A stretch of 64,000 nt of DNA from assembly GCF_044704955.1 (NCBI RefSeq), contig NC_091999.1, forward strand, positions 31,868,001-31,932,000. The letters are read 5' to 3'. A program made the position numbers and the translations under genes. The notes under the pieces are model-generated. The model was not told where the DNA came from. It did not search any database and saw only the letters and a program-made list of their open reading frames with translations. Within the stretch, counting starts at the first letter, position 1. Each line of letters starts with the position of its first letter. This DNA is from Pristiophorus japonicus (lineage: Eukaryota). This document shows positions 19,301 to 52,495 of the stretch, one piece after another.

Positions 19301-19329
19301 TTTCAGGGTGCATGCAACTAATAGCCCAG

Positions 19330-20279: not shown

Positions 20280-20500
20280 TGGTTCTGCAATTGCTGTGGT
20301 TAGGTACAAAATTCCTGCAATAGCTAAAGAACCCCAGTACCTTACGAACCCCTCAGGCTGGTTTTGGTCGTGGCATAATCCTAATGTCCTCCTTCCTGAC
20401 ATTGGACATGGTCCGAGTTCCTTGAGATATTTCGTGTCCCAGGTACTGTACCACAGGTTGTCCTATTTGTGCCTGTTTGGGATTTACTTTAAATCATGCT
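20280..20500 (-). pseudogene. pol: ERV-A pol (RT palm/thumb) fragment
   Basis: FKVNPKQAQIGQPVVQYLGHEISQG...RKVLGFFSYCRNFVP. Confidence 0.85.
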
Positions 20501-22737: not shown

Positions 22738-22755
22738 ATCCTGCTGACTGCGCCA
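22738..22755 (-). promoter_or_regulatory. Primer-binding site, tRNA-Ser
   Basis: Minus strand TGGCGCAGTCAGCAGGAT is 16/18 complementary to the 3' end + CCA of the Ser gene at 4330 (ATCCTGCCGACTACG-CCA); it lies 3 nt from the LTR end CTCTAACA. Confidence 0.85.
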
Positions 22756-22758
22756 AGT

Positions 22759-23207
22759 TGTTAGAGTTAACTTCAAACCACCACTCGGAGATACAAGCTG
22801 GCAGGTGAGCTACCCTTGAATGAATGCTCAGAGAAACTGCCAGAGACATCTTATTTTATACAGTTTCAGATTATCGTCTTATATAATTACGCAAGTTACA
22901 ATTAATATGTGCTGATTGATTAATACATGATTATCTGGTAGGTTGCTTCCTCCAATCTGGCCTCTATATACTTTAATTAGTAATTCAGGATACGTGTTGT
23001 TATGATTCCTTTTATATAACTTGTATCTTATTATAGAATTCAAATTCTATGTTATCTGTGTCTGTGCCCAGCTCCCAAGGCCTTTGGTCTATGAATTGGA
23101 ACATTTGCCTCTCTGCGGAAGGCATCCCACACATGCTTCCCACATTCTGAAAAACAGGCTGTGGGATCCATTTAAAAAATATGTTAACTCCATTTTAAAA
23201 AATCACA
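22759..23207 (-). repeat. ERV-A 5' LTR (outer boundary approximate)
   Basis: TG...CA ends, adjacent to the PBS; TATAAAA on the minus strand at about 22854-22860. Confidence 0.6.
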
Positions 23208-25928: not shown

Positions 25929-26827
25929 TTATTTAATACATTTAACAATTACAGTAAAGGGATATTTCACCACATTCTTCAACTCCTCTCTGAATTTCGA
26001 CTGGGTCACGGCATAAATACATGTGTTGGTGCAGCAACTCAGGAGCTGAAGCATAAATCCAATTTCCTGTACATATTGAGGTAGATATACAGGAATAAAG
26101 TTTAACAAATACAATCGTTCAACCACAGAATATAAGAGAAACACTGCCCATAGCAGGATAAAATTGCCGGATATAACAAACAGTAAAATGATGGATTTCC
26201 TTCGATTCTCCATCTCTGGGTCACTGGGAATCTCCCCACTGCTGTGGGCCCTGAGTCTCCTGCGGGCTCTGCTCGATACTAAAACTTGTCTGACAGTTAA
26301 AGTATTGAGCAGAAGGATCAGAACAAATGGAATAAACGGTGTTATAATATAATGAAGGAATTCAATTACTGCCCATGATAGTGACTCAGAGACTTCCCAT
26401 GTAACAAAACAAAACCAGCTACCATTGGAAATCTGATACATACCTCCATACATAAAGTACCAGAAAGTGTTCTTTACACAGAACAGCGCACTCAGTGTTC
26501 CCATAGCCACAGTCGCCGTTTTCTCGGTGCAATATTTGGTTTTGAGCTTCTGACAACAAATGGCTATACATCGATCAAAGGTAAAAGCAACTGTGAACCA
26601 GACGGAACAGTCTGTGACTGCGTAAAGCAGGATGGCATGGATATTACACACTTTACTCTTCCACATGAACTCAAACGCGGTTGAATAAAGAATAGGAATC
26701 TGCCTGGATATCAGGTCGAGGATAACGACCAGTAGATCTGCCGCTGCCATTGCCACCAGGTAACGGCTGACACACTTGGAGAGACCGCACCTTCCTCGAG
26801 ACAGGATCATTATCGTCACTAAGATCA
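25929..26827 (-). CDS. GPR139/GPR142-like class A GPCR, exon 2
   Basis: ILSRGRCGLSKC, YLVAMAAADLLV, DCSVWFTVAFTFDRC, DPEMENRRKSI, LQLLSCCTNTCIY are hallmarks of the cartilaginous-fish GPR139-like family. Acceptor TTGCAG at 26833-26828; frame open to the stop. Confidence 0.93.
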
Positions 26828-26934
26828 CTGCAAGAAAGAGAAAAACAGGGAATTTATATTTCAGATTGAGAGCAACTTCAGCTGTCTCAAAGAATTATGT
26901 GTGGAATGTGTCAGGATTAAATGAACTATCCAAT

Positions 26935-29564: not shown

Positions 29565-30560
29565 AGGTCAGTAACATACATGGGGACTGACAGTACAGTG
29601 CTAAGTAAGGATACATTGGCACTGATAATACAAGGTCAGTAAAGATATATGACGACTGATCACACACTGGTCAGTAAAGATACATGAGGACTGATAATAC
29701 AATGGTCAGTAAGTATACATGGGGACTGATAATACAGTGGTCAGTAAGGGTACATGAGGACTGATAATACAATGGTCAGTAAGGGTACATGGGGACTGAT
29801 AATACAGTGGTCAGTAAGGGTACATGAGGACTGATAATACAATGGTCAGTAAGGGTACATGGTGACTGTTAATATAATGGCGAGTAAGGATACATGGGAC
29901 TGATAATACAGTGCTCACTAAGTGTACATGCGGATGGATAATACAGTCGTCAATTAGGATACATGGGGACAGATAATACAATGGTCAGTAAGGGTAAATG
30001 GGGACTGATAATACAGTGGTCAGTAAGGGTACATGGGGACTGATAATACAGTGGTCAGTAAGGGTACATGGGGATTGATAATACAATGGTCAGTAAGGGT
30101 ACATGGTGACTGTTAATATAATGGCGAGTAAGGATACATGGGACTGATAATACAGTGGTCACTAAGTGTACATGCGAATGGATAATACAGTCGTCAATTA
30201 GGATACATGGGGACAGATAATACAATGGTCAGTAAGGGTACATTGGGAAGGATAATAAAATGGTGAGTAAGGGTAGATGGTGACTGTTAATATAATGGTG
30301 AGTAAGGATACATGTGGACAGATAATACAGAGGTCAGTAAGGAGACATGGGGACAGATAATACAGTGGTCACTATGGGGACATGGGGCATATAATATATT
30401 GGTCAGTAAGGGTTCATGGGGACAGATAATACAGTGGTCCGTAAGGGCATATGGGGGCAGATAACATATTGGTCAATAAGGGTACATGGGGACAGATAAT
30501 ACAATGGTCAGTAAGGATACATGTGTGCTGTTAATACAATGGTCAGTAAGGATTCATGGC
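29565..30560. repeat. 35-bp minisatellite (GGTCAGTAAGGGTACATGGGGACTGATAATACAGT)
   Basis: Period 35 (e.g. 29704, 29739). Confidence 0.95.
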
Positions 30561-30619
30561 GACCTATGCCATGCAGATAGTCACAAGCCATGCTATCGTT
30601 TATTTTACTCAGAGCATGA

Positions 30620-32693
30620 AATGGAGAGACTGGAGGTGAGGAAAGGCGATGAAAGGAGCAGAGAGGTGAGGTGGGGAGAAGAGAGAGGACAGGAGGCGGG
30701 AGGGGAGTAGGCGAAAGGAGATGAGTGTGGAGGAGAGGAGAGGAGGGGAATAGGAGAGCAGAGGTGAGGGGAGGAGATGAGTGGAGTGGAGAAGAAAGCA
30801 GAGCAGAGTAGAGGATAGGAGGTGAGAGGAGAGGTTGGAGGAGGAAAGAGAGAAGATGAGCAGGAAGGGGAGGAGGGTTTAGTGGAGGAGAGGATAGAGG
30901 AGAGGGGAAGTAGAGAGGAGAGCAGAGCAGAGATGAGTAGAGGAAAGTTGATAAGAGGTAAGGAGAGGACAAGAGAGGAGAAAAGAGGGCAGAGGAGAAG
31001 ATAGGAGAGGGGAAGAGAGGAGAGGAGGGGAATGGAGATGAGAGTGTAGGGGAGATGGTAGGAGAGGAGAGTGGAATAGAGGTGGGGAGAAGGTAGGGGA
31101 GAGAAGAGAGATGAGAGGGGAGAGGAGGAGAGGAGCGGAACGCAGAAGGGAGGAATGGAGTGAATTGGAGAGGGGAGAGAGGATGCGAGGGAAGGAGAGT
31201 AGAGCAGAGGAGAGGGGAAGGGCGGCGGGAGAGTAGAGGAGAGACCATCAGAGGAGAAGAGAGGAAGAGAGTGGGGAGAGCAGGGGCGAGAAGAGATGAG
31301 AAGGGAGGGGAGGAGAGGGGAGAAGAGAGGGGAAGTGGGGAGGAGAATGGAGGGGAGAAGAGCTGTGGAGAGTCGAGCAACGGAGAGGAGAGTAGAGGAG
31401 ATGAGAGGAGAGGAGAGAAAAGATGAAAAGGAGAGAGGAGGGTAGTAGATTAGAGGAGAGGAGAGGATGAGACATGGGACAAGAGAGGAGAGGAGAAAAG
31501 AGGGCAGGAGAGGAAAGAAGAGTGGGTAGTGGAGAGGTGAGTAGAGGTGAATGGAAAAGAGGGGTGGTGAAGTTAGGGGAGAGGAGAGGAGAGAGAAGAC
31601 AATGAATGAGAGGAGGAGGTGAAAAGAGGGTAGAGGAAAGGAGAGCAGATGGGAGGAGAGGGTAGGAGGGCAAGGAGAGGAGTGGAGAAGAGAGGAGTGG
31701 AGAGGGTACAGGAGAGCAGAGGGAACGAGAGGAGCGGGAAGGAGAAGAGAGGGGAGAACATCAGAGGACACAAGTTGAGGATAGGAGTTAAAATGAAAGG
31801 GGAGAAGAGGTGAGACGGAGGGGAGAGGGGAGAGGAGAAGAGTGGAGAATTTAGGGGAGCGGAGTAGAGATGATTGGAGTGGAGAGGAGAGTAGAGATAG
31901 AAGCGACTTGAAAACAGGGGGGAGGAGAGGATAGGGGAGGAGAGGAGATGATTGGAGATGAGAGAGCAGAGGAGAGGAGATGAGAGGAGATGAGAGGAGA
32001 ATGGAGGAGAGGAAAGGGGAGGAGAAATGGGTCGGGTGAGGGGAGAATGGAATAGAGGAATGGAGAAGGTAGGCGAGAGGGGAGAAAATGAGGACATAAG
32101 AGAGTTGAGGAGAACAGCTGAAAGGGGAGGAGAGTTGTGGAAAGGCGGGGAGATGGGAGAGGAGAGAGGAGAGAACGGGAAAACAGGTGAGGAGAGAAGT
32201 GGAGAGGAGAGAGGAGCAGATGGGAGAAGGGATGAGCCGAGTGGAGAGGATAGAGGAGGAGAGGGGAGAGGAGGAGAGAAGATGAAAGGAAAAGGAGGTG
32301 AGCAGAGGAGAGAGGAGATGAGAGGAGTGTGGAGGAGAGGGGAGGCGAGAGGAGGAGAGTTGTGGAGAGGGGAGGAAAAGAGGGACGAGCGGAGAGAGGA
32401 GGGTAGAGATGAGCAGGGAGGGGACGAGAGTGTAGGGGAGGAGAGGTGAGAAGAAAGCAGAGCAGGGGAGAGTAGAGGAATGGAGAGTAGATGTGATGAG
32501 AGGAGAGGAGAGGTAATTGGAGTGAAGAGGGGAGGGGATTAGAGGAGAGGACTGGGCAGGGGACAGGAGAGGGTAGTGGCGAGGATAGGAGAGGAGAATA
32601 GAGTAGAGGAGGGGAGAAGGCAGGGGAGAGGAGAGGAGATGAGCATAGGAGAGATGTGAGGAGAGAGGAGAGGGGAGGGGTGAGGAGGGTAGG
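30620..32693. repeat. About 2-kb polypurine (GGAGA)n-like low-complexity tract
   Basis: The plus strand is almost all G/A; the ORFs here are S/P/L- or E/R/G-rich artefacts. Confidence 0.95.
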
Positions 32694-33291
32694 TGTTGGG
32701 GTAAAAAGGAGGCTTCTCACCTTTAAGGTGGACTAACTGATGGAGCTAAACGACATCTCGCACAGCTTCCCACTGTATAACGACCAAGGAAGTAAACAAA
32801 CGAAACCTCAGGTTTATTGGTTTTATTACGAGCAATGCACGGGATGGTTCAATCTTGGAACCTCTGAAATAGAAGGGTTTTCAAGCATAATTTATACAGG
32901 TGTTGGAGAGGAGCTTTCCTCCTGCAAAATCATCGATAGTTCTATTGCTATTAGCGAAGTTACATTGATTTATTGACTCTTATCAGATGGGCTCTGAGTG
33001 GTACATGCAACAGCCCATCTCTCATCTTTGTTTTGTTCCATTTTGCCCTCTACCCCAGTATATCCGATGTCTGGTACGGTTGTCCTGGCTTCTTTATCTC
33101 TTCTCAGGGACTTGTAAAGAAAACTGCTGATATTGGCTGCTTAAGTCTTACTAAGTTTAAGCTATAATATACTGCGTATAAGCGTGTTATACCTTTATAA
33201 GCAAGTGTTACATACATAGGTAATTGATAAGTTCACAACCTTCAGCATAATTCTGACCCCATATCTACAACCTTTTTATTTATCCTTTACG
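32694..33291 (-). repeat. ERV-B 3' LTR
   Basis: Homologous to 40493-41090. Minus-strand AATAAA (about 32812-32826) and TATAAA (about 32891-32896); PPT-like GGGCCATTAGGGGGAAT adjacent at 33292-33308. Confidence 0.88.
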
Positions 33292-33519
33292 ATTCCCCCT
33301 AATGGCCCTTGGCTATATGCCCAAGATAGGCAATTTCGCAATTAATTCCACATGGGTGAGCTTCCAGGGGTGACCTTTTACTTGGGTAGTGCTACTTCCC
33401 GAGCTCCTGGACCTATCTGTTGGTTTGCCCATCAAGGTTATACTATGTATGTCCTTTCTGCCGGACAGTCTGATTTCCCTTTCTTCAATGTTTTATCCAT
33501 AGTACGGACTAGGGCCTGC

Positions 33520-35300
33520 CTCTTACGTCGGTTACAGCTTTTTAAAGGATAATACTAGCAAGGTGAATTCCCTTGCACTACAACCAGTACAATGAGTCCA
33601 GCATAGTTCGTGTATAAGTCCTTTCTAGCCAATATTTTCTCGGTGTTAGAATTATGCCCCGCCTGGGGTATCCTCTCATTCTTCTACTTTTCCTCCACTT
33701 GGGGTCTTCTCTATTGTACCGAATTCCTGCCCTGCCTGGGGTATCCTCTATGTTGACGAATGGTGTCCATTTCAGTCCAGTTTGTTTCTCTTTCAGTTGG
33801 AGTATTGGTTTTCCTTGTTGTCCGATGGCCTTCGCATAACCTCCTCAGGTAATGTCCATCATTGCCCCGAAGATCTTTCCTCCTTTAGCTCAGGGGTTGT
33901 AATAAACCCATTTATATCTGTCTCGTCAAGTGGAGTGAAGCAGAAGTCAATATCCATAATGGTGCATGACGTGTTCCTTTCTTCATTTCAGTTGCCGTGA
34001 TGCTCACACATGAATCTCCATATCCTCGTGAAACAGCGATAATTTTGTAGTCCTGTGTTAGTGGGGGTGATGCTCAAGGTGCACCCGTCCACTTGGTTAT
34101 ATCCACAGTCATCTTTGATCATTCGTAGTAGATCTCGACATAAAGCAACTTGGTTATTTTTATAACAATCTACATATGCTGAGACTCTTAGTACTGTTGT
34201 TCTCTTCAATTAAATTTCTGTTTTTTCATCGTACCGCACACGAGTTTGATTCCTTTTTACTCCGACATTGTTTGGTGTAGAGTATCTACGATTGTCACAT
34301 CATACTGTCATATAGATAATAAAAAATCTATTTAATGTGCGGTTACACAGCAGGCCTTTGAAACCCAAGCATGACTGTTTCTCTGCACCTCGCAGGCATG
34401 AGTCATGTTTTTTCTAAGGTCCAGTTGGTAAATATATCGACTGTTATCCAATCCGGCACCTTTCTATTCTGAAGCTGTTCAATGTTATGTTGTATTCCAT
34501 TCAGCAACCATACTCCATATCCTATACATAATAGTTCTGTCTGTATGGTTTTACTTAAGTTCGTTTCTGCTCTTTTCATTTTTAGTTCTGGCGTGGTCTC
34601 GCAATGTGTGGGCCACTTTAATAATTCCCTTTCTGCGCCATTACCGAGTTGTGTCTGTAACTTTTCATGATCCTCATCCCTTTCCAGCAATCCCTGTAAG
34701 GTTTGTGTTTGGGCGTTAACTCGATCATCTATCGTGTCTGGCTCTATAGTGTTCCAACTCCCGCAACGTATCCCACCGTGTACCATTTCTAGAATCCCTC
34801 TTTTTCCCCTGTCCCGTTTTTTACCTGACCCTCTTTCGACAATAAATTTCATGGCTTTTGATTGAGGGCCTTTAAGTGCTCGCAGGGTCAGGTTTCTATA
34901 CAGGCTTATACTGTTTAACCTGCAGGTGTTGGTGTTAGTTATATTGTTTAAATTTACGAATACAGTAATTATTCGCTGACGTACCCTGAAGTGTATCTTA
35001 TCCTTGGTCTGCCATAGCAATTTCTCTTTTGCCCCAGTGTTCACAGTTGGACAGGTTTGTGGCGCTAGGGGTGTGATGGTCGAGGTCCTGGTAATGCTCA
35101 CTGTTGCTAAACTAGTGGATGGGGCCGTGTTGGTGGGTCTATCTCTGGAGATATCCCTCCACCACCATTCATAGATGTTAGTGAAATCTGCAACCCCTTC
35201 CCCGGGTGCAGTATGTTTGACCCTCCTGATTATAAAACACACCGCGGTCTTATTCCCACTAATTATGGTCCCGTATTATTGACACATCCCCAATGTTGTT
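33520..35300 (-). pseudogene. env: ERV-B env (class I fusion glycoprotein), disrupted
   Basis: ORF 34403-35242 has a Thr-rich stalk, RDRGKR|GILEMVHGG cleavage site and heptad region. Cys-rich segments follow (DDCGYNQVDGCTLSITP), then a hydrophobic remnant at about 33570-33600. Confidence 0.82.
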
Positions 35301-35520
35301 TCGTTTCCTTGTTACGTTGTTTTATGCCCGTTATTTAACTCTACTGTTGTTCCGTCCGTCACCATCAGTGTTTTTGATGTTTTATTGAACTAATGTCGCC
35401 CAAGTCCCTGTAATACAGGCCTTGCCATCCCTCAGTCTGTTGTCCCTGATATGAGGCTGCGTTACTCCACGTTATTTCCACGAGCTCTTGAGTCCTGCAA
35501 AAAGCAATATTTTCCAGTCG

Positions 35521-38110
35521 TCACTGGTTAGTTAGTGACCATGCTTTTTTAACTGGATCCAGTGTTTCCACTTGCCGATACTCCTTATAAGTACCATAAC
35601 TTACCATGATTACCTGATAGAGACCGATCCATTTGGATGCGATCCCGAACCTCTCTGGGGTAATCTCTTGACTGCCTATTTGGGGTGTTTGGAACTTCTG
35701 TTTCTTAGTGTCGTTCTCTAAATCCATCACCAGCATCTGGACATCAAGTTTATCATGTTGGTTCTACCTGTATGCACATACCCGTGGTATAAATTTAATA
35801 GGCTCCCGTGGATGCATTCCGGGACCACCACATTCCCATCTTTTCTCCATATCCCGTCGGTCCCTTGTTTGGCCCTCTCTGCTTCCACTCCTCCTGTTCC
35901 TGCGGAGTGGCCTCTCCCTGTACCTCAAGCATATTTACTTCCTCAGGCCCAATTGTACATGCTCTGCCTTGGGCTTCCCCGGCCAGTGTACCTGCCACTC
36001 GCTTGGCTGCTTCATCTGTCCATGCATTCCCCTGTTCATACTGATCATTATTTTTTACGTGTGCTTTGATCTTTATTATCGCACACTCCTGGGGTAGGAA
36101 GGAGGCTTCCACTAGATGTTTCCCAATCTCTTCATGTTTAATCGGTCCTCCTCCTGAGGTCGTGTATCACCGTCTGCTCCAGGCTATCATATATTCATGC
36201 TCTACTCCGAAAGCATATCGACTGTCTGTATAGATATTTACTCATTTTCCCCTCGCAAGCCTCAGAGCCTCAGTGAGAACCACTAGTTCAACCACTTGAG
36301 CTGATAGATTCTCTACTAACCGTCCTTCCCCTTTGACCTGACCGCTGCTATCTACCACGACCCATCCTGTCTGTGGTGTCCCATTGATATAGCGCCGAAA
36401 CTCACCTACATATAGATCCATGTCTGCCTCCTCAAGCAGGGTTTCACTTGCCTGACTACTTCCCTCATCTTCTGTTGTGCTACAATGATGCTCCTCTCCC
36501 TTTGTAATGATCCACCCTGCAGGCGTCTTTTATTATTGTTACCGTCCCGTTGAGTGGGGCGGGGCGGGGGGTGGGGGGTGGCGGGAGAGGAGGGGGAGAA
36601 CATTATTTACCACCTCGCCATTTGTGCATCGAATACATTTTTAGCCTTCCAGTTTTTAGTAATTCTACTAAGGTACGCTGGGTTTGTAGAATAATGCACC
36701 CTGACATTATTATTGGTTCGTTAAATCTGATGGCCCAAGCCGCACAGTCGTGGGCAGCAACGCACCTCGACAGTCCTGCAGCTACAGGTTGCGGTTTATC
36801 TGAGTAATATGCCACTGGTCTATGCCTGTCTCCATGTAATTGAATCACCACCGCGTTATAATGATGGTTAATATGGTAGGTATAGACGTGAAAGGGCCTA
36901 TTCTGGTCTGGTAGTCCCAGGGCTGAAGCACTTGTGAGAGTTTGTTTTAACCGCACACATGCAGTTTCTTGATCTAGACCCCAGTTTACTGGCTCATAGG
37001 AGGGTTCCCATCCTTTGACCTGTTTCTGTATAGGTTAGGTCATCTTGGCATATTCGGGAATAACATTTCTGCAGTAGTTTAATAGCCCGAGTACCTGCCT
37101 GACCCCTTTCACGGTTCCTGGTCTGGGGATTGATTGAATTGTTCCTTACTGTCCTCGGGCATCTGTCTCTTCCCTTACGATATTATGTATCCCAGATATG
37201 TTACTTCGCTCCTTCTTTCTCCTGACAATATTCGATGAAAGATGCTCCAGCTGTTATTGAATCCCAGTGGTACCTTCGCCCATGTGTTTTGTTATCCATT
37301 TACCTTGAAGACAAATTTTCCTTGAGACTCTTTGGCTAAGGGAATAGTCCAAGTTCCATTCACTATATCCAGCATGGTGAATATCTTATGATCCGGATCC
37401 AGGCCATTAAAAATTGTGGCTGGACTTGCCACTATTGGGTGTTCTCCGGAAGTCACCTTATTCAGGGTGGTATAATCGATAGTCAATCGGTAAGACCTGT
37501 CGGGTTTCTTCATCAGCCACACAGGTGAATTAATGGAGGCTATTACATGTTTCAATATACTTTGCTCCTCTAATTCATGCACTATCTAACAGACCGCTAC
37601 CTCAGCTTCTGGTGTTAATTCGAACTGTCGGTGAGCTTTGTGTTCGGGTCCAGGAATTTTGATGGGTGATATCTCTGCTAATCCATAATCTTGTTTGCAT
37701 TGTGCCCACAGAGTCGGGTATAATTGGCACACGCTAGCCCATACACCCTTTGTTTCCCACTCGGGTTGGATTATGGTTGTTCCTACCACTCGTTGCTGCT
37801 GGTGTCCCGGGTTTTCGAACTTAATTCGGTTTCGTGCTTATCTCCCAAAATTATCCGATTACGCTGAAGAGCTATCAGTACCCCTATCTCCCTTAATGTA
37901 TCGCTGCCTTCTGTATGCCTTCTCTATGTTGTCTTCTGTATTCTGACAGCACCAAAACTGAGCAGGTAGCACTACCCCTGTACTTCGACAACACCAGCTC
38001 ACTTCGGGTCGCTTTCTGATATCCCCCACTCTCTCCTTGTATGTTGATGGTCCTATGGGTCAGGGGCAAATCTAAGTTGGTTATTGGGTGTTCTCGGGTT
38101 CGGGCGGTGG
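35521..38110 (-). pseudogene. pol: ERV-B pro-pol, disrupted and internally deleted
   Basis: RT NSPVWLMKKPDRSYRLTIDY..LNK and TMLDIVNGTWTIPL; tether RPVAYYS; RNase H SAQVVEL, NIYTDSRYAFG, KIKAH...GNAWTDEAAK; integrase C-terminal KWIGLYQV only. Confidence 0.9.
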
Positions 38111-38199
38111 TGGCAGTGGTACCAGTGGTGCTGGTACCTGTCTGAGCATGTCCATCAGATCTTCCCTGGTTAATGATATTCCCTTCTTTGCCTGTTTGT

Positions 38200-39050
38200 G
38201 GTCTCGCCATCCAGCGCCTTCCTCATAACTCCAGCAATCTTTGGCCAAATGTCCAAGTTTACCACAATTTTGACATGTCCCTTTAGAATTGCTGTAACGT
38301 CTGCTTTTCTGCAGGCAATCCCTACTGAAGTTACCTTCCTGATTGCAGTTTAAACATATCAGTGGAGCTTCGCGGGAGTCTGTCTCTTCCTCCTTCGTCT
38401 CTGCTGCTAACGCTGTTGCTGCTATTTTTGCTCATTTATCCCTTGTTCTAACTTTAACCACTCTACATGTTCTGTCCATTCCAAAGTTTTATCATAATCA
38501 TCTCCTGTCTTAAATACTCACTTAATTATCTTTTGATGTGCCTTTCCTAGTCCATCCTTAAACATTTTCAAGAATGCTGCATCATTTCTGTTGCGGTCAT
38601 CAGCCCCAGAGTGGTTTTTGTATTCAATCCACTTTCGTTCCCCGTACTCCCCAAACCTTTTCCCTGCCTTTTGAGTCACAGTATTCTACTCCAGTCTTTT
38701 GTCAGAGTTCTGTATCTCTACTATTTTGCTTTAGCGGGTGGTAACTTATTCAATAGAATTTGTCTCCTGTGGGCTGAGGGGCACCTCCTGTATGGCAATG
38801 TGGGCTGCTCTACATCCGCTGGAGCGAATGGTGGTCGTGCGTATCAGTGCCACTGATAAATAGCCATTATCATGTGCCGGGGCCACCTCTACTCCAAACT
38901 CATTATCCCTGTCTGATTGACTGTTAGGTTGGGGTTGTGGACAGCACTTACCCAACTTGGGGTACATTATCTCTATTACCGTAGGTGATGGTGCTGTGGC
39001 TGTGCTCTGCACTATCTATCTGGTCCTGTCTTTTTCTCTGCCAGCTTATT
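38200..39050 (-). pseudogene. gag: ERV-B gag remnant with two zinc knuckles
   Basis: CLNCNQEGNFSRDC (His replaced by Asn) and CQNCGKLGHLAKDC at about 38234-38356. Confidence 0.85.
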
Positions 39051-40472
39051 TATCTTAGCTTCTAACTCTTGAATTTTATGTGTTTAAGTATCTATGTGTC
39101 CTCTGTAGCAGGTGAGTATTATTACATACGCTTTCTTCCTTTTGTTTTCATTCTGAATATCCCCACATTTCTTCTGTCTGTCAGGTGAGTCTTTTTTCTT
39201 TTATTAAGAAATCCAAACTAATAATGTCCAGTATAAAATATCTTTCAATGGAAAGGGTTAACTCCACTACAGGTTTGTAAGAAGGTCTGGCGTCATTACG
39301 TGACTTCGGGTATCCATCTGAAAATATTACCCCAAGTCTTTGTGCTTTCAAAGCTTGATAAGAAATTAGGAATCCGTTAAAATAGCAGAAATTATTGGTA
39401 AAGTTGTCAAAATAAAACTTTCTCAGCGGGAAAGGCAGCATTTTAGATTAAACTCCAATTTCTCTACACACCCAATTCAAATACGTGCCAACGAGTTTTT
39501 CATTGATTTAAAGCGAGACCACACATTTTAATAGCTATTTTGTTTACAGAAATCCAATTTCCACGCAAGCTATATACATTCCAGCATTTTGTTTTTTTAT
39601 GGTCCCGTTCACTGAGCAAATCTTGCGTTTTATTTTCTCTCGGCACAAAATCTAAACTTCGGTGCCAGTCCATCTTTTTAAGAATCCTGTAATTCCCAGT
39701 TTTTTCTTTCTGTGCTGAGTTCACATAGCTTAGATCGTTTCCCCCTTTTGAATCTGAACTTAATCATTTTTTGATGACCTTACTTCAGTCCATAGTTAAA
39801 CATCTTTGTTTCTCTTCCTCGGCACAAAGTGTTGTCGGGTTTAACTCATAAGTTTTTATATTTCAACCAATATCCTTTTCACAGCCAATTTAAATCTCGT
39901 TTCTTCAAATTAGGTTTTGTATTTTGATGATCTTCCTCCAGTCCATTTTGCTCAACATCATTGTTTCTCTGCAGCTTTCAAGGTCAAATTTCTATCTTTT
40001 GATAAAAACAAACTGTCCTTTGTAAATTCAATTTGATATCCAACATTTTTCTTTTCTTTTATTAATTTTCCATTTATCTCAACTCGCATTTTATCCCACT
40101 GGCCAGTTTTCCTAGGATCCTGGGGTCCCACCCCACGGTTTAGGTTGTATTCCTTCTTGTTTGCACCGCACACGATCAATACCAGCTTCACTGTGTGATT
40201 ACCACGTCATGCTTCAGGACATACACCTTATATTTCCCATAACGATCGCTGGGGTCCACTCCCCATGCGGTTGCATTCCTTCTTTCTCAGGCATACACCT
40301 ATGCCACCCTTGGTTTTCAACCATCTGTGGTTCGTTATAAGTTGTCCGACAGCTGACCCCTTCAAATTCTTCATACAAATTAGTTCCTTCCCCGTAAATG
40401 CTACAGCTGCATGTGGTAAAAAACATGCTCACTACCATTTAGCAGTCACGTGATCCAGGTCGGAAGGTCTGC

Positions 40473-40490
40473 ATCCGGTTCATGACGCCA
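40473..40490 (-). promoter_or_regulatory. Primer-binding site, tRNA-Ser(CGA type)
   Basis: TGGCGTCATGAACCGGAT vs the recalled PBS-Ser TGGCGTCACGAACAGGAT (16/18); 2 nt from the LTR. Confidence 0.8.
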
Positions 40491-40492
40491 AA

Positions 40493-41090
40493 TATTGGGT
40501 TTAAAAAGGAGGCTTCTCTTCTTCCACGTGGACTAACTGATATAGTTCATCGACACCTCACCTTTCTCCCACTGTATAACGACCACGGAAGTGAACACAC
40601 GAAATCCCAGGATCAACTCGCTTTTATTACGAGCAATTACAAGGGAAGGTTCAGTCGTGGAACCTCCGAAATATAAGAGTTTTCAAGCATAACTTATACA
40701 GGTTTTGGAGAGGAGCTATCCTCCTGCAAAATCATCGATAGGTCTATTGATATCAGCGGAGTTACATTGATTTGTCGACTCTTATCCGACGGTCTCTGAG
40801 TGGTAAATGCAACAGTCCATCTCTCATCATTGTTTTGTTCCATTTTTCCCTCTACCCCAGTCTATCCGACGGTTAGAGTGGCTGTACTTGCTTATTTATC
40901 TCTTCCTCAGGGACGTAAAAAAACTGCTGACCGGCTGTTTAAGTATTACAGAGATTACGGATTCAGTTCAATGCGTTATACATTTGCGCTGTACCTACAT
41001 AAGCAAGTGTTACCTACGTAGCAATTATAAGTTCAAGACCTTCATCATAATTCTGAGCTCCTATTTGCAACCTTATAATTTATCCCTTGA
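40493..41090 (-). repeat. ERV-B 5' LTR
   Basis: Colinear with 32694-33291, same length, visibly diverged (roughly 80-85% by eye). Confidence 0.88.
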
Positions 41091-42510
41091 AGGGATCGAT
41101 GCAAAGCCTCCATCATTGTTCCCCATGTGTCCTCTAATTGTTTGGTGAGACGTTTATTCTCTCTGCTTAGATCTTCTTTTTAAATCTCAAGATTTCCTAA
41201 TTGTTTACATTGCAGCCCCTACGTGAATTGCATTGATACTCTGCTGTTGCATTACTGCAGTAGCTGAGGCAAATTGACTCTGCAAATTCACAATTTTCTG
41301 TTTAATGTCTGAATCTATTTTCTGCAATTCTTCATTCTTAGCCGAATTTTTTTTTCCAGTTCTGATATTTTATCCCCTAATTCTTTCTTGACCTTTGATT
41401 GACGTCCTGCGAAGTACGAAGCTGCACAGGTGACTAGACTCATCGCCTTACCCAGCTTCCATTTCTTAGCTTTAATCTGTTCATCAATAAAAGTGACCGT
41501 ATCCTTAAGGGATACATTCGGATTCTTCCCTAGGCAATCTAGCAACAGTGTCTGCACTTGCGTTTTGTCACATATTTTTTCAAACTTTTTCTGATACTCT
41601 TCCAAGAGACACTCCTCCGGCATCTGAAAATTAAATATTTTTATGTAAGCTTCCTTAATGAAGATAACAGTCACTAGCAGTTGACGTAAATCAACCTTAC
41701 ACAAGATTTGATCTGCCTTGCATCTGCTGGTGACACACAAGAACTTGTTTCCAAATAGACAGAAAAAATTACAAGAGTTCCCAATTAACTTGATTATTGA
41801 GTATATTGCATTTTGTTCAATATCTCTTTGTTTTGTTCCTTCGTGGTCGCCAGATGTAGTTTTTAACCAATGAGCCGCTTTTTGCCGCTTTGCTAACTAT
41901 AGCAATTCAGCTATTTCCAGGGTATATACTTAATTCAAACTGGGAGACTCTTGTTCACATCATACCAAATACTTTTAATACAGGTATAGTGAGTAAAAAC
42001 AGTGTTTTATCAAGTAAATTACATTCTGTTACAAAAGTAATACTTAACAAATTATAGTCACAGCCTAATTCTCGATAGCGTCCTCTCGAGCTGACCGTGG
42101 TGCCGACTCCTTATCTCCTGTTCGCTTGATTCGCACTGCCTTCTGAGTAGAAGAGCTGTTACTTTATACCATTTTTCTCCCATTCAAAAGCTGTGAAAAT
42201 TTACAGCTGTTGTAGCCTTACAGTAGATCATATTATCTACTGCCTTTGACTTTCTATGTTATCTCTATCTCCCTCCCTCTCTGTGGCAGGAATCACTTCT
42301 CTGAGAACAATTATACAGACCATGGTCACACAGAATTAATTACTGAGCTTGGCTTTACAAAAATATGACAAGAACTGGTACGCAATGTATACCTTTATGT
42401 TATTGATTAATAATTTCGGCCTTGATCCTTCTATTTGTAAATGAAGCTTTATCAGCAGTTACAAAAATGGATAAAATAATAATGACTCAATTTTAAAATT
42501 TTGCTTTGTT
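41091..42510 (-). mobile_element. Third LTR element remnant: LTR (from 41855, outer end uncertain), PBS-Arg, coiled-coil gag-like N-terminus
   Basis: PBS TGGCGACCACGAAGGAAC at 41835-41852 (Arg-type), followed by TGTAG. ORF 41315-41740 continues after an A-run frameshift as KNEELQKIDSDIKQKIVNLQSQF. Confidence 0.72.
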
Positions 42511-43200: not shown

Positions 43201-44146
43201 GACGTGTATTATTGTTTTGTTCAAAGTTTCAGAGAGTACCAATAACTGGATTTGACAATGATGGTTTTCATTATATTCTAGTTATGTATAATATTATGTT
43301 TAAGGTTGTTAGTATGTCTTCATATGTAAGTCTTTGTGCGTTCATGTGTAATTGTGCACTTACACAAAAACACAAACATATACAAAATCATCAAAACACT
43401 TACATGTGAACACACACAAACTCACTTTCACATGTATTCTCCTCCGCTCTGTGTAAATGTGTTCTGTGTAAGGCGCAATGTGATATCAGCCGAACGAATG
43501 CAACAATTCAACCGATGGGCTTCAGCAACATCAGGGACACAACTGTGAGAAACTCGGAGAGGATTCAGTCACCAGTTTAGACATGGCCCATTAGAATTCA
43601 ACATGTTAGTTTACAATTAACAGGGACTGTTGCACCCCCAAGTCTATTTAAAAATATTATGTGGAATAAATAGTTATTTCAGAATATAATACTCATATGG
43701 CAAATTTAAAATTTTTAGATCATGGGTTAGAATGTACGATGGCAACTTAGTGCATTAAAAAGAGAGTGGTTCACTTCCCATCTCCCTGCGGGAGTGGCAG
43801 TGGGGGTTACATGAATTATACGTTTCCCTTTCTCCTCCCGCTGGTGCGTGTGAGAGGTACAGTGAGTTAAAATTACCCTTTACTCCCTCTCAGCTGAAGT
43901 TACCTTCAGGAATCCTGTAATGAGAGAACTCCACGCAGTTTCTAACTCATGCTGTATCTGAGCTGGTAGCGCTGGCTGTACAAGCCTTGGGACCGAGATC
44001 CGCAAACACCCTACTTCAGATAAACAGCCCTCACATTGGCCAAAATAGGAAACATAATTAATTGAGTGGCTGTGTGTTTAACTCACGATGGAAGAAAAGC
44101 CCTTCATTGTTTTTTATATAAGAACTGAAATGCAATCGAGACATTC

Positions 44147-44161
44147 TCATTGACAAGAATG
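44147..44161 (-). pseudogene. IGHM: Displaced end of the IgM secretory tailpiece (...SCQ*)
   Basis: Minus strand CAT TCT TGT CAA TGA immediately left of the CR1, completing MDTF-(N)SCQ* begun at about 53384. Confidence 0.82.
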
Positions 44162-45384
44162 ACTAAGAAAGCAATAAAGGAAGGAAAGATAGATTACAAA
44201 GGTAAACTTGCGCAAAACATGAAAACGGATAGTAAAAGCTTTTACCGATATGTAAAACGGAAAAGAGTGACTAAAGTAAATGTTGGTCCCTTAGAAGATG
44301 AGAAAGGGGATTTAATAATGGGAAATGTAGAAATTGCTGAGAGCTTAAACAATTATTTTGCTTCGGTCTTCACAGTGGAAGACACAAAAACCATGCCAGA
44401 AATTGCTGGTCAAAGGAATGTGGGAAGGGAGGACCTTGAGACAATCACTATCACTAGGGGGGTAGTGCTGGACAGGCTAATGGGACTCAAGGTAGAAAAG
44501 TCCCCCGGTCCTGATGAAATGCATCGCAGGGATAAAGAGATGGAGGAAGTTATAGCAGATGCATTCGTTAAAATCCACCAAAACACTCTGGACTCTGGGG
44601 AGGTACCAGCTGATTGGAAAGCAGCTAATGTAACACCTCTGTTTAAAAAAGAGGGCAGACAAAAGGCAGATAACGATAGGCCGGTTAGTTTAACATCTGT
44701 AGTGGGGAAAATGTTTGAAACTATCATTAAGGAAGGAAGAGCGGGATATCTAGATTGGAATAGTGCAATCAAGCAGACGCAGCATGGATTCATGAAGGGG
44801 AAATCATGTTTAACTAATTTACTGGAATTCTTTGAGGATATAACGAGCATGGTGGATACAGGTGTACCGATGGATGTGCTGTATTCAGATTTTCAAAAGG
44901 CATTCGATTAGGTGCCACACAAAAGGTTACTGCAGAAGATAAAGGCACGTGGAGTCAGAGGAAAAGTATTAGCATGGATAGAGAATTGGCTGGCTAACAG
45001 AAAGCAGAGAGTCGCGATAAATGGGTCCTTTTTGGGTTGGAAATCGGTGGTTAGTGGTGTGCCACAGGGATCGGGGCTGGGACTACAACTGTTTACAATA
45101 TATATAGATGACCTGGAAGAGGAGACAGAGTATAGTGTAACAAAATTTGAAGATGACACAAAGATTAGTGGGAAAACGGGTTGTGCAGAGGACACAAAGA
45201 GGCTGCAAAGAAATTTAGATTGGTTAGAGAATGTGCTAAGATTTGGCAGATGGAATACAATGTCGGAAAGTGTGAGGTCATCCACCTTGAGGGAAAAAAA
45301 ACAGCAAAAGGGAACATTATTTGAATGGGGAGAAATTATAACATGCTGCGATGCAGAGGGACCTGGGAGTCCTTGTGCATGAAA
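44159..45384 (+). mobile_element. CR1 LINE, 5' part, inserted in the IgM tailpiece
   Basis: KSPGPD, WKAANVTPLFKK, RPVSLTSVVGK, GVPQGS; stops at DLGVLVHE where Tx1 begins. Confidence 0.93.
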
Positions 45385-45563: not shown

Positions 45564-48500
45564 TCAAGTTAAAATTTGGTTGCCGGGCATGATGATGCAC
45601 TCCAGTCCCTCCGGTGCCCACCTCTTGCGGAAGGCCACGAGCGTACCGGTGGACACCGCATGCTCCACCTCCAGGGACACCCTTGACCGGATGTATGCGC
45701 GGAAGAGAGGCAGGCAGTCTGGCTGAACGACCCCCTCGATCGCCTGCTGCCTGGACCGGCTGAGGGCCCCCTTGGCCGTGCCCAGGAGCAGTCCTACGAG
45801 GAGGCCCTCGGACCTACCCGCTCCCTTCCGCACAGGGTGCCCGAAGATCAGGAGTGTGGGACTGAAGTGCAGCCAGAATTTCAGGAGCAGCTCCTTTAAA
45901 TAACAAAACAGGGGCAGCAACCTCGTGCACTCAATAAAAACATGGAACACGGACTCTTCCAGACCGCAGAAATTGCAGGCGGCCTGGGAGCCCGTGAACC
46001 GGCTTAAAAATTTATTGCACGGCACTGCTCCGTGCATCACCCTCCAGGCCAAGTCCCCGGCAAATAGTGGGAGGACCCCTGCGTAGAGTGCCCTCCATCG
46101 GGGACCCCCGCCTCCTCTGGACGGCAAGATGGTATGCCATGGCGTGTCCAGATGGCAGGCAAGGATGGCAAAGTTGAGAGTGTGCAGGAGCAGCCCGTAC
46201 AGGAAACCCCTCCGCGCAGAACTGAAAGGCACGGAGGGGATTTCCACGAGGCGGCTCAAGTTGTGAGGCGTCGGCCCCCGAGGGAGGTTCCGGGGTTTGG
46301 CGCCGATGAGGAATTCCGTCCGGACGGGGGTCAGTTCGGATGGGATCTCCCCGCGTGCTTGAGCCTCCTCGATGCACCTAATGGAGTCGGGGCCCAGAGC
46401 TGTTTTTATCGACTCGATGGCATCAGCCGCGCGGCGGACGTTGGCGGAATTTAGGCGCCGCGCCAGCGTGTCTGGCGCCATCCAACCCGCTCCTCCGCCA
46501 TCGAGCAGGTCCCTGACCCTGGTCACCTCACCAGCCAAAGCACTCTCATCCGATCGCCACCTAAAACCTCGGTCGTGGAGGTACGGATTCCCGAGCAGCG
46601 GCTCCTGCAGGACGGCCGCCATTCCAGCCGGTGGAGAGCTCCGCTTGGTGGAGACTTTGTTCCAGACCCTGATGAGTTCCTTGTAAAAGACAGGCAGCTC
46701 CCGGAGGGCGGTCCTGACGCCCCCCACACTCACAAACAGGAGCTGCGTGTCGTAGTTGGGGCCGTGCTGCTGGCGGAAGAAAGACGTCGCCAGAGCACAC
46801 CACCTGGGAGGGGGGTCAACGTAAAGGTATCTCTGCAGGGTCTGAAGATGGAAAGTCGCGAGCTGGGCGCTGACGCACACCAACAACTGACCGCCCTCCC
46901 CAAGCGGGAGACTCAAGACCGCGGCAGAGACCCAGTGCTTCCTGTTGTTCCAGAAGAAGTCCACCAGCTTCTTCTGTATCTTGGCGACAAACTCAGGTGG
47001 AGGGGTCAAAGTGACCAGCCGGTACCACAACATGGCGGCCACAAGCTGGTTTATGACTAGCGCTCGACCCCTGCAGGACAGCACTCGGAGCAGTCCTGTC
47101 CAGCGCCCTAGGCGAGCGGCGACCTTGGCCTCCAGCTCTTGCCAGTTCGCCACCCACACTTCCTCGTCGGGGCTAAGGTAGACTCCCAGATTGAGGAGAT
47201 GGGTCGTGCTCCAGGCAAAAGGCGTGAGCTCCTCCGGCAGGGAGTCCACCCGCCACTGACCCACCAGGAGTCCGGAACATTTCTCCCAGTTGATTCTGGC
47301 GGAGGATGCGGCTGAGTAAATCTCCTGGAACTCACACATCCTCCGCAGGTCAGCGGGATCCTCTACCGTGAGGAGCACGTCATCGGCGTAAGCCGAGAGG
47401 ACGACCTCCACGCCCGGCCCTTGCAGAGCCAGTCCCGTCAACCTCGTCCGCAGGAGGCGCAGGAAAGGCTGCACGCAGACGGCATATAAATGGCCGGACA
47501 TGGGGCATCCCTGGCGCACCCCTCTCCCAAAGCGAAGGGGCGCCATCAAGGACCCGTTAACATTAATCAGACACTCTGCGGCGGCGTATAAAAGTCGGAT
47601 CCAGGCGACGAAATGCATCCCAAACCCGAAAGCGCGCAGAGTTCCAAGCAGATAGTCGTCATCCACCCTGTCGAACGCCTTCTCTTGGTCGAGGGATAGG
47701 AAGGCGACCGGCAGACCAGCCTCCTGGGGAATAATGGATGAGGTCCCGGACCAGATGGATGTTATCGTGGATTGTCCGGCCCGGGACCGTGTAGGACTGG
47801 TCGGGTTGGATCATGTGGTCCAGCACGGCACCAAGGCGAGCAGACATCGCCCTGGCGATGATTTTGTAGTCCGTGCTGAGGAGGGATACTGGGCGCCAGA
47901 TATTAAGGAGGCGGAGATCGCCCTTCTTATGCAGCAGGACAATGACTGCCCTGCGCCAACAGAGGGGCATCTCCCCGGTCACCAGACGTTCCCACAGGAC
48001 CCGCGCGTAGTCACCCCCCAGGACTTCCCAGAACGCCCTGTGGAACTTCACGGTCAGCCCGTCCAGACCCGGGGATATTCCCCTCGAGAGCCGGTCGAGG
48101 GCGCCGGTCAGCTCCGCCAGGATTAGCGGAGCTTCCAGATTTTCGGCGCCCTCCGGGCTGACCTTCGGCAGGTCCTCCCACAAAACTCTATGCACTTCTT
48201 CGCTGGACGGCTCCAGAGAGAACAGGGCCCCGTAATATTCAATGGCCCTGTTGTTGACGTCCTCCGGATCCGAGACGAGAGAGCCGTCGTCGGCCAGCAG
48301 CGTCAAGAGCTGCTTACGGACACTCTGTCTTTTTTCCAGCGAGTAGAAGAAAGGCGGAGCAGCGGTCCAGATCCCGCAGGAACTGGATCCGTGACCTCAC
48401 GAACACGTCTCGGGACCCTACGAGCTGCAGGTCCTTCAGCGTGGCCTTCTTCGCTTCGTACACCGTCCGCAGGGCCGGGTCCCCGACGACTTGCTCCAGG

Positions 48501-49452
48501 TCGAGCACCTCCTTTTCTAGATGCCCGACCCTGGCCGCCCGCCTCTTGGTCGACCCCCTCGCGTACTCTTGATAGAAGACGCGGACGTGAGCCTTGCCCA
48601 CGTCCCACCATAGCCTCAAGGAGGGGACGCCCCCCTGCTTCCTTCTCCAGTCGGCCCAGAAACGACGGAACGAGTCCTGGAACCGCACGTCCTCCAGCAG
48701 CTGGTTGTTAAAATGCCAGTACGCGGACCCCGTCCTCGCGCGGAGCGAAGCGAGCTCTGCCCGCAGCAGGTGGTGGTCTAAACAGGGTACCTGCCGCATG
48801 GAGGCCGCCGGGACGCAGGAAACGTACGCCCGAGACAGTTAAAGGCGGTCGACTGTGGACCATCCAACTCCAGGCCTCACCCAAGTAAAGGCGCTGGAGT
48901 CTGGGTGGAGATTTCGCCAGACGTCCACCAAGTCGAAGGACCCGACCAGGTCCCACAACTTCTCCATCGCCGTCATGCTCTGCGGGGCACCGGAGGGGTC
49001 CCTGGCCTCGAGGGTGCAGTTAAAATCCCCCCCGAGGACAATGCAGTCGCCGACGTCGACGGAGCCAAGAAGAGCGGACACCTCTTCGAAGAAGCGCGTT
49101 TGCTGCGGGCCGGGTTGAGGGTCGTACACGTTCACGAGGTGGAGCGGCACGCCCCCAGGCGAACCGTTCCGTGCAGCAAGCGGCCTGGCACGGGCTCCTC
49201 GACCCCCAAGATCTCCGGCTGAAAATGCGTGGCCAGCAAGATGGCCACCCCACTAGAAGTGGCAGTGAGGTGGCTCATGCGGACCTCTCCTTGCCATTCC
49301 AGGAGCCACGTGGCTTCGTCTCCCGGAACGGTGTGGGTTTCTTGCAGGAAGCACGCTGCATATTTCCCCTCCTGCAGGAGCGAAAAATTGTTAAATCTAC
49401 GTCGTGCCTCTCTGCTGCCGTTGATGTTGAGGCTGGCTATGGTTATCTTCAT
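45564..49452 (-). pseudogene. Tx1 ORF2 (APE endonuclease, RT, C-terminal zinc finger), several frameshifts
   Basis: MKITIASLNING, CFLQETH, GGDFNC, SPGLDGL, WRPVSLLSTDYK, GVRQGCPMSG, YADD, CNFC...HVFIEC across ORFs 49132-49452, 48839-49150, 48314-48799, 47659-48306 and 45564-47666. Confidence 0.93.
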
Positions 49453-51557
49453 AACCTATTGTGGGGGGTGGGAGTGGAGTCGTTTGTTGACCTCCACTCC
49501 TTCAGCAGCCCAGTGAGGAACCTTTTGAGCCGGCGCCGCTCAAGGCCTTGCGCCTTTGATAAGGGCCCGCCCATGGCCATGGTTTTAGCGGCGGCGCGGA
49601 CGGAAGCCATGAGCAGCCCCGGCTCAGACCATCTTTCCCGGGCCAGATGGGTTCGGTTGCGGCGACCCTGGCGCTGGACCAAAAAGTCCCGGAGTTCCTC
49701 GACGGGAATGAGGGGGGATTCAGCGGCGGTCACGAGGAGATCTACCGCCTCACTGGCGATGGACTCGAGATCTTCACCTGCGTCCTCCACCGAGTCCCCG
49801 TCCTCCTCCGGGAGGTCGCCGCTAGCAGCCGGCTCGTCGACCGCACGAGGTATGGCAAACGGCCCGGCCGCTCCATCTGGCCCTGGCTCTGCCCCAATCC
49901 CACCCCAGGATCGTCGGCAGAGGAGTCCCCACTGAGCTCTTTTAAAATTGGTACTGGGTCGGGAAGCAACAGCGGAAGGGTTTCCTCCTCCGCCCCAGGA
50001 ACCGCGGAACACGGAGAGACTTGGTCAAAGTAATGTTCCAGGTCCTCCAAGTACCCCAGCTCCAAAGTAGGTGGCGAAGGTTGTTGTTCTTCCCCCTCCC
50101 CGCCGCCACCCCCCGGCCCAGCGTGTACAGAATCGTTAAAATGAATCCATTTTCAGTTTCTTCCGGGCCGAGCGACTCTAGGGGGCAGATAATTAATAGC
50201 TGGGCGGGCTCAGGTTGGGCCTGTTCGGCCCGCCTGCCTCAGTCCCGGGGACGCTCGACCCGGCGGCTACGCATTCCACCGCTGGCCCCACGCCCCCCTC
50301 GTCAGGCAGATCATTCACACCATCCCCGGGAGGCAGAGGCCGGGCAGCCTCGACTGCCTCACCCTCCCCGGGGACAGATTCCTCACGCCTGCAGCGCAAT
50401 TTGGGGGCGCTGGTGGGGGACGCGGGACACGCGGCGGGCACCGACTCCTCCGCGGAGGGATGTTGTTCCCCCTCCGCCTCATTGGAGCGGCGCCTCCTTT
50501 TGTTCCTGGGAGGGCGTGGAGGCAGGGAGACCTCCATGTCTGCCGAGGCCTCCCGCTCCACCCCCCCCTTTTTCTTTTCTTGCCCGCGCCCGAGCGCCTC
50601 TGTGATACTGGTCAAGGGCTCAGGCACGGGCTCAGGGCACCCCGCGCTCGCCGGTGACGGGGTTGGCCCGAGCGCGGTAAACAGATTGTCTGGCGCACTG
50701 AGGGGTCCCGCCTCTAGATGTTTCGCCTTCTTCCGTGCCTTCTTTCCGGTCGGACGCTGTCCCCCCCCCCCACCGCCGGAGGCCGTGAAAACAATGGCCT
50801 CCGACGATGCCCGCGCACCTACGGCTCCCGGCACGTGGACGCTACTAGGGGGAGGGGTGGCGGCGGCGCCAGCCTTGGCCACCCTCGGTGGTTTGGCGGC
50901 TTTGGAGGCGGGGCAGTTCTTGCGAACGTGCCCCACATCACTGCAGGCATGGCACCGCAAGCCGTTCGACGTCCAGAAGACGTGGTAGGCAGTCCAATCG
51001 TGCACCACATTGAAATTGCCCTCCGTCGTCTCCTCCCGCGCCAGCCGGACAAAGAGCTGGCGGCGGAAGGAGAACACATGGCGCAGGCTGTTCTCCCTGA
51101 GGCCGAGCGGTATGGGGTTGATCCCCGACCTTACCTCCCCCAGTTGGTGTAGAAGAGGGAGGAGGAGCTCAGCGGGATCAAAGGGCGGGACGTTTGAAAT
51201 GATGACCCTCTGCGCGGTGGCCTCGAGAGGGTCCACCGGCAGGAACACCCCGCCCACCATGAGCCCCTTTTCAATGGCCAGGGACATCGCCCGCTCTGAC
51301 CCCAGGAAGAACACGGCCTTCCCAGACATCTTGGAGACTTCGACAATGGCCGAGGGGCCGACTACCCCAGCCATCGCCCGCACGCACTCCTCAATGCTCA
51401 TTGCGGGTTTAGTGTAGCTCTTGACCCCGTGTTTTTTAGTTATCAGTCTGAATGGTGGCAGGGCAGCAGGAGGCGCAGGAGCTGCCGTGGATGTGGATGC
51501 CACCTGCGCATAAGTCCTAGCTGGCCCTGCCACCGGCGTGGATGTGGTCGCCATCAC
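49449..51557 (-). pseudogene. Tx1 ORF1 (RRM-like plus CCHC), frameshifted
   Basis: IISNVPPF, VFSFRRQLFV, CHACSDVGHVRKNC; the C-terminal piece 49449-50012 ends in an ATGA overlap with the ORF2 start. Confidence 0.88.
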
Positions 51558-52495
51558 GGGGTCCCTTTCAGGGCTACACCCACCCCAAAGTCACATGCCT
51601 TAATTGTCTTAAGTGGCCTCGTTTAAATATTTAACAGCGGGAGCTCTGAAAGAGGCACTCCTCTCCCCTAGTTGGCATTTGGGGAGGGGCCTTGCTCCCT
51701 CTGCTCAGTTGTCTAAATTGTTCTTGTCTTTTTTTTTTCCAATTGGGAGGATGGGCTCTCAGAGAGAGAGGGGAGAGACAGAGAGAGAGATAGAGTGAGG
51801 GGTTGTGGGAAAGAGGGAGGCTGCAAGGGCAGATGTCCCCTCACAGTAATGGGTGGGTGCACTCCCCAGATGGCAAACAAAACAGTCTTTGGGGTTGACT
51901 TCGGGTGGGGCAGAAGATGTCTTCACCTGGAGCAGCTGGAGCCACACATGTACACACTCCCAACGATGTTAATTAGGGTGATTTAGTTTCTTCAGCCTGG
52001 TAGCTCCAGCTATCCCAGGCTAGGCAATGGGGGAGGGGTGCTTCAGTGGTGTGTGGGCCTAGCTGTAGTCAAGACCCCAACATACACTTCCACACACACA
52101 CACACCCCCCGCGATGTTCTGGCCCTCGATTGGTCATCTTTCCTCCCCCCACCGATGCAACAAAGTCTTTTTGGTGAATGCACCAAAACACACCCACCTT
52201 TGGCTGAAGAAGTCTTTCCCTCCTTCCACATTGGCAAGTTGTTGTTCTTTTTCCCCCCTCTCTCCAAATCTTTGTTGAAATAATGAAGGTGTTGCAGTCT
52301 TCTGCTCTCCTCCTCTCACTCTAGATGAATGGTAATGAAGCCCCTTCCTTCCTCCAGTTCCTGGGCTGGTCTCAGGGCTCACTCCAGGCCTTCCAGACGG
52401 GAGCTAAAGCAGGGAGTTCCTTCTCTCACAGCAGCCAGGCTCCAAGTGCATAGGCCACGCCTCCAAAGCTCCACCATTGGTCCTTGTGCATGAAA

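Follow-up and report, generated by a model that had tools for sequence, protein, structure and literature searches.

A defective multi-copy endogenous retrovirus of Pristiophorus japonicus, likely of an SnRV-like grade and with a predicted F-type envelope

Endogenous retroviruses (ERVs) related to snakehead retrovirus (SnRV) and Ovex1 that possess a zinc finger and a GPY/F motif have been described as unclassified (PMC4299795), and lineage I of the elephant shark CmiERV elements consists of SnRV-related ERVs (PMC4422223). Regarding the envelope protein (Env), the foamy virus Env has been found by cryo-EM to be F-like (PMC11468914), independent origins have been preferred for the Envs of canonical retroviruses and lokiretroviruses because the two lack similarity (PMC9040795), and the Env of walleye dermal sarcoma virus (WDSV) has been treated as a recent departure from the gamma type (PMC9967133). 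We analyzed a window of 64,000 nucleotides from Pristiophorus japonicus (contig NC_091999.1, positions 31,868,001 to 31,932,000), the minus strand of which carries, at window positions 32694-41090, a provirus with the layout long terminal repeat (LTR)-gag-pol-env-LTR. An original prediction had assigned this provirus to a lokiretrovirus-like or sister lineage. All coordinates below are those of the window, and all proviral features lie on its minus strand.

The provirus is one defective member of an endogenous retrovirus family present in many copies. Contigs placed along the provirus at a threshold of at least 85% identity amounted to 12,068 and 10,735 in two runs of one sample, mostly 85-99% alike, and the family is multi-copy because these paralogous contigs cover all 30 bins, contig depth not being equal to copy number. 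A motif scan of every minus frame of 35401-38200 found no remaining DTG/DSG motif of the protease (PR) and no YxDD motif of the reverse transcriptase (RT); with the catalytic motifs of protease, RT and integrase absent, this copy is unable to replicate alone and has demonstrably lost its activity, a loss that the original prediction had overlooked. No host function is indicated for it. We consider it quite probable that this defective copy derives from a fish lineage inside the Retroviridae, likely of an SnRV-like (clade Huo, or non-class I, non-class II) grade, whose Env is predicted to be of the F type (class Ib).

RT phylogenies were inferred with references comprising viruses picked by motif scans and 116 Pol relatives. 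SnRV (L044) and WDSV (L073) were identified by matching their RTs to rows of the PMC7947760 supplement, and the labels gamma, foamy, beta, delta and alpha were assigned by us according to motifs and layout. The window RT entered a quick 70-row tree and a careful 42-row tree (a subset of the former) as one frame, with X at its two stops. In the 42-row tree it groups with P0001, P0002 and the horn shark (Heterodontus francisci) protein P0009 at a support of 99/97, a core also recovered in the 70-row tree, and this group adjoins the fish elements P0005, P0008 and P0014 (98/90). The tree separates the window RT, together with the retroviral rows, from Gypsy (100/99) and outside the gamma, epsilon, alpha, beta and delta (class I) branch (99/98), and a position inside epsilon is rejected (approximately unbiased test, p-AU 0.0005), so the expectation that the element is not gamma, epsilon or Gypsy is borne out. 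Foamy rows form an RT clade of their own (100/100). The best BLASTX match of the window RT among the reference viruses is SnRV (E 1e-28), and both the window RT and its relatives carry the PIVAS and RLPQGFHNSP-type motifs seen in the SnRV row of the PMC7947760 supplement. The RT motifs quoted in the original prediction as spuma- or loki-type are present in the sequence, but fit the SnRV row and not the loki rows.

Several aspects of the RT data tell against an attribution to SnRV. SnRV itself lies in another RT group, with a 97/91 branch between it and the window lineage, and the window RT is no more identical to it (55/169 residues) than to an epsilon row (57/169). Constraint tests made no choice between a grouping with the SnRV group (p-AU 0.092) and one with foamy viruses (p-AU 0.158), and a position of the window lineage as sister to all other sampled retroviruses was 14 log-likelihood units worse (p-AU 0.066). 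Furthermore, the RT trees were built without loki or Odin rows, and without ERV-L, ERV-S, ERV4, ZFERV-2 or CmiERV rows. Because none of these three deep positions is rejected and SnRV is not the sister in the unconstrained tree, "SnRV-like" denotes a grade here and not a demonstrated clade. The provirus might instead belong to a separate, unnamed deep lineage of fish/shark/amphibian-type retroviruses with an F-type Env, distinct from the SnRV clade proper, foamy viruses and lokiretroviruses, a possibility that we regard as somewhat unlikely. It draws on the supported RT clade (98/90) that the window lineage forms without SnRV and on the deep nodes that the constraint tests leave unsettled, but clade Huo is already broad and found in all major vertebrate groups (PMC6001957), an SnRV-like lineage I has been published from the elephant shark (PMC4422223), and the five ERV groups named above are missing from the reference set.

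The likely SnRV-like placement can be compared with the rest of pol, for which Pfam was run over 18 frame pieces of the provirus. The RT (37124..37777; RVT_1, E 6e-7) is followed by a tether, or degenerate RNase H (36705..36983; PF17919 RT_RNaseH_2, E 8e-12), and by an RNase H (35969..36424; PF00075, E 2e-15), so that the tether plus RNase H noted in the original prediction are indeed there. In an RNase H tree of 35 rows, which omitted three distant low-scoring rows and one foamy row, the window sequence lies with gamma, epsilon and SnRV and is split from foamy viruses by a 97/93 branch. In a tblastn alignment with the intact relative P0001, residues 55-240 and then 298-327 of P0001 are matched across the RT, and the gap between 37223 and 37213 corresponds to about 57 missing residues (P0001 residues 241-297), YxDD included. 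Upstream, a protease remnant comprising the C-terminal half, without DTG/DSG, is recognizable at 37890..38090 by its by-eye likeness to the P0002 N-terminus. Integrase remnants (35524..35885) comprise an N-terminal zinc-binding piece (35724-35885) and a C-terminal GPY/F-like piece. With the latter and the zinc finger of its Gag, the provirus shows the Gag zinc finger and/or GPY/F-like feature of SnRV/Ovex1-related ERVs (PMC4299795). The integrase catalytic core is absent at about 35723, the P0001 match ending at residue 794, ahead of the core, and 22 paralogous contigs continue through that very position.

The gag gene (38081..39260, 5' end approximate) is interrupted by stops and frameshifts and retains a capsid C-terminal piece (38473-38682). 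The two CCHC knuckles reported earlier are both recognizable, the second as a full CCHC (38234-38275; zf-CCHC, E 3e-8), but the first (38315-38356) is degenerate, with Asn at the His position. The window Gag matches that of horn shark P0009 (E 4e-15), which in turn matches SnRV Gag (E 2e-10). The stretch of about 1.2 kb between the primer-binding site (PBS) and gag (39300..40470) is a candidate long leader or decayed accessory open reading frame (ORF); it is covered by many paralogous contigs, and yielded no Pfam match under E 0.05 and no BLASTX match to the fetched proteins.

The env gene (33450..35480, ends approximate) is stop-free only at 34403-35275 and frameshifted downstream. Its predicted order is an N-terminal domain with a Thr/Pro hinge, an F2-like stretch, a furin site, a fusion peptide and heptad region, a Cys-rich beta region and an anchor. 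The furin site (RGKR, 34799-34810) claimed in the original prediction is present, but about 230 codons into env and hence not very early, and the long ectodomain described there is confirmed by the roughly 390 codons that precede the hydrophobic membrane anchor (about 33560-33620). As also anticipated, no CX6CC or immunosuppressive domain (ISD) motif was found in any of the three minus frames of env, using a scan that detected the motif in 4/4 gamma Envs, and a gamma-type Env was rejected on this basis. Six env relatives (P0117-P0122), found among 1.84 billion proteins, likewise lack these motifs by eye; decay could hide them in the window copy. One of the six, P0118, is a gene model that joins a piece 76% identical to the window env to an immunoglobulin (Ig) V-set domain, and probably reflects faulty splicing in the annotation of a paralogue that lies within an antigen-receptor locus.

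The window env match to P0117, its closest relative, carries on in two more frames. The top Atlas cluster of P0117 is PF00523 Fusion_gly (0.94, 197 shared features; PF00523 is present on 47% of the cluster members), followed by baculovirus F and Gypsy env. A profile of the six-row env family aligned with WDSV Env over 184 columns starting at the furin site (E 2.6e-5, probability 75) and weakly with foamy Env (E 0.18), and gave no alignment with a gamma Env. In shuffle tests (100 shuffles each), the foamy Envs tested (7/7, of 15 fetched) and WDSV Env scored above every shuffle and SnRV Env above 98, while 0/11 gamma, beta, delta and alpha Envs exceeded all shuffles, the scores of all 11 being below zero or unreported. 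From these comparisons, the window env is predicted to encode an F-type (class Ib) fusion protein. Other env results pull in the opposite direction. The profile match to SnRV Env is weak (E 0.013, probability 3), with 2/100 shuffles as high; the window env ORF itself gives similar but weaker Atlas leads, with a recognition score below the bar; Pfam assigns a fusion family neither to the window env nor to any of the six relatives; two env structure models have no confident fold (predicted local distance difference test score of about 31); and in a profile search of 609 ORFs an unrelated 172-aa ORF ranked above every Env. The profile matches further suggest that the Env of the atypical epsilonretrovirus WDSV (L073:7000-8900) may itself be of the F type. 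In the literature searched, from which most subscription papers were missing, we found no paper that describes the Env of WDSV or of SnRV as F-like.

The 5' LTR (40493..41090) has imperfect terminal dinucleotides at both ends, and the 3' LTR (32694..33291) has CA at its end and adjoins a 2 kb GA-rich low-complexity tract (30500-32690). The two are 83% identical (485/585 aligned columns; Kimura two-parameter distance 0.195) and differ by 51 transitions and 49 transversions. Two bases past the 5' LTR lies an 18-nt PBS beginning with TGG (40473..40490), which is putatively tRNA-Ser-like. The 3' LTR is directly preceded by a polypurine tract (33292..33300); both features were identified from sequence. 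No target-site duplication is visible in the LTR flanks. Directly upstream, at 41100-42300 on the minus strand, a second ERV-like element is represented by its 5' end, with an LTR-like end, a PBS that we take to be tRNA-Arg-like and a Gag-like ORF of 193 aa that contains a coiled coil; it shows no similarity to the main provirus, and no downstream continuation of it was seen. A contig bridges this element and the 5' LTR at a depth of 311, hinting that the composite of both is itself repeated.

These boundary features lend some weight to the view that the locus is a composite produced by recombination or rearrangement, whose two LTRs stem from separate members of the subfamily, and not one very old integration: the lack of a target-site duplication, the imperfect 5' LTR ends, transitions equal to transversions, and the truncated upstream ERV with its deeply covered junction would all fit. 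However, PBS, gag, pol, env and polypurine tract lie in colinear order and each point to a single lineage, and the heavy gene decay fits real age, so that we judge a composite origin to be doubtful.

It is very improbable that the provirus is an ERV of foamy-like or epsilon/gamma type, or a Gypsy element that carries an env. The closest solved structures to the RT are foamy Pol (E 1e-17), slightly ahead of gammaretroviral RT, a sister-to-foamy RT is among the unrejected constraints, and the RNase H and Env resemble those of the epsilonretrovirus WDSV, but foamy viruses form their separate RT clade, epsilon and Gypsy are excluded by the test and branch given above, and Cys-His boxes are absent from fish foamy-like ERVs (PMC5210030), whereas the CCHC of the window Gag sets it apart from foamy viruses, as originally proposed. 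Odin and Ty3-Gypsy were also rejected as candidates, since an env is present here and absent from Odin and the branch that sets Gypsy apart leaves the RT among the retroviruses, Odin itself not being in the tree.

The provirus is probably not a lokiretrovirus, judging from its motifs and domain composition, and we attach hardly any credence to its being a true lokiretrovirus, the first from a cartilaginous fish. Dual RNase H and a predicted F-type Env are loki features (PMC7947760), and the RT has RLTIDY and NGFW-type motifs in common with loki rows, which the RT trees did not include. The dual RNase H found in the provirus is not diagnostic, however, because it is common to all retroviruses. 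As for the PF00523-like Env with an RXKR site, RGKR is present and the Atlas leads to PF00523, with no Pfam match and no confident fold; an F-like Env is not specific to lokiretroviruses, because the foamy Env is also F-like (PMC11468914), and the matches of the env profile to WDSV and foamy Envs indicate that a predicted F-type Env is no loki hallmark. A CGIN1-related integrase is a further loki trait, and the integrase core is missing from this copy. Against loki membership, the RT signature PLSRWPM and RCPFGYxNSPAEF, common to the loki Pol passages among the matches listed in the PMC7947760 supplement (the first 8 places for each of the two motifs, compared by eye), is absent from the window and the 116 fetched Pol proteins, bar one Gypsy-like RCPFG. 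Between the PR C-terminal motif and the first RT motif, P0001, P0002 and SnRV have 97-101 residues and the window has a similar number (~100), versus about 285 counted by eye in a loki row. The window RNase H does not group with foamy viruses, which stood in for lokiretroviruses in the tree, whereas PMC7947760 places the loki RNase H with foamy viruses. The premise that lokiretroviruses have CCHC knuckles seems wrong for the Gags viewed: none of four loki Gag entries (one viewed to its stop, three almost) has a Cys-His box, in place of which Bik-1 Gag has a glycine-rich patch. Four loki Envs examined are cut about 115-120 residues in, whereas the window Env has an extra N-terminal part, and none of the five chondrichthyan genomes screened in PMC7947760 is starred for loki. 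Lokiretroviruses are characterized by an RT clade of their own, sister to the canonical retroviruses. The claim of a loki-like or sister lineage is therefore not supported as to membership, and only its looser form, a deep-branching position, retains its p-AU of 0.066.

Elsewhere in the window, a third ERV, which belongs broadly to the same lineage but is more decayed, occupies 19300-22760 on the minus strand, with env pieces (19301-19933), a pol piece (20259-20505), a gag start near 22067, a 165-aa ORF before gag and a PBS-like site near 22755. Two non-LTR retrotransposons with RT domains, which we take to be CR1-like and Tx1-like, lie at 44129-45382 (plus strand) and 45564-51590 (minus strand). 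The minus strand also carries a single-exon rhodopsin-family G-protein-coupled receptor ORF (25932-26894) and an Ig C1-set constant exon (56866-57504), and a tandem array with a 27-bp unit, repeated about 100 times, spans 1-3500.

The domain anatomy suggests how the parent virus of this likely SnRV-like copy may have worked. It would have primed reverse transcription with a tRNA at the PBS, and would have had a zinc-knuckle nucleocapsid and a Pol of the order PR-RT-tether-RNase H-integrase. Entry would have depended on a furin-cleaved Env whose fusion subunit refolded like paramyxovirus F and foamy Env, with the Env N-terminal domain as a likely receptor-binding module. Germ-line entry and amplification are demonstrated by the LTR-bounded copy with its many paralogues; after these steps, this copy decayed.

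The locus holds an inactive copy of a type of element previously published from sharks, and its value is comparative, mainly for Env evolution. Tentatively, and as something less likely than not, the provirus may represent a deep fish/shark lineage with a class Ib Env homologous to those of WDSV, SnRV, foamy viruses and lokiretroviruses. The F type would then be the original envelope of retroviruses, retained by several of the canonical lineages in fish, and the gamma and beta types later replacements. If true, this would contradict the proposed independent acquisition of Env by lokiretroviruses and canonical retroviruses. A canonical fish lineage with an Env profile linked to WDSV, foamy viruses and PF00523 bears on the views in PMC9040795 and PMC9967133, and it is unsafe to assign an ERV to the lokiretroviruses on the strength of an "F-like Env".

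Among known systems, the nearest RT neighbours of the provirus are P0001, P0002 and horn shark P0009 (47-57% identity), which have the same Gag layout with two knuckles and are database gene models, not described families. SnRV and clade Huo (PMC6001957), the latter including the published elephant shark CmiERV lineage I (PMC4422223), share with it the RT motif set, the PR-RT spacing, the RNase H group, the Gag capsid and knuckle region, and a long non-gamma Env fusion subunit without CX6CC; the provirus differs from SnRV in its RT, which has no more than about 33-40% identity and is not the sister in the trees, in two knuckle positions versus one, in a shorter Env N-terminal part and in the 1.2 kb region ahead of gag. 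Lokiretroviruses (PMC7947760) have in common with the provirus the dual RNase H and a furin-cleaved Env predicted to be F-like, but differ in RT signature, PR-RT spacer, RNase H group and Gag knuckles, and in lacking the extra N-terminal Env domain. Foamy viruses (Spumaretrovirinae) resemble it in their class Ib Env (PMC11468914), which the env profile weakly matches, and in RT likeness, and are distinguished by the CCHC Gag of the provirus, a different RNase H and a separate RT clade. Finally, WDSV (Epsilonretrovirus) has an Env fusion subunit that aligns with that of the provirus from the furin site on and belongs to the same RNase H group, but a placement of the provirus RT with epsilon is rejected.

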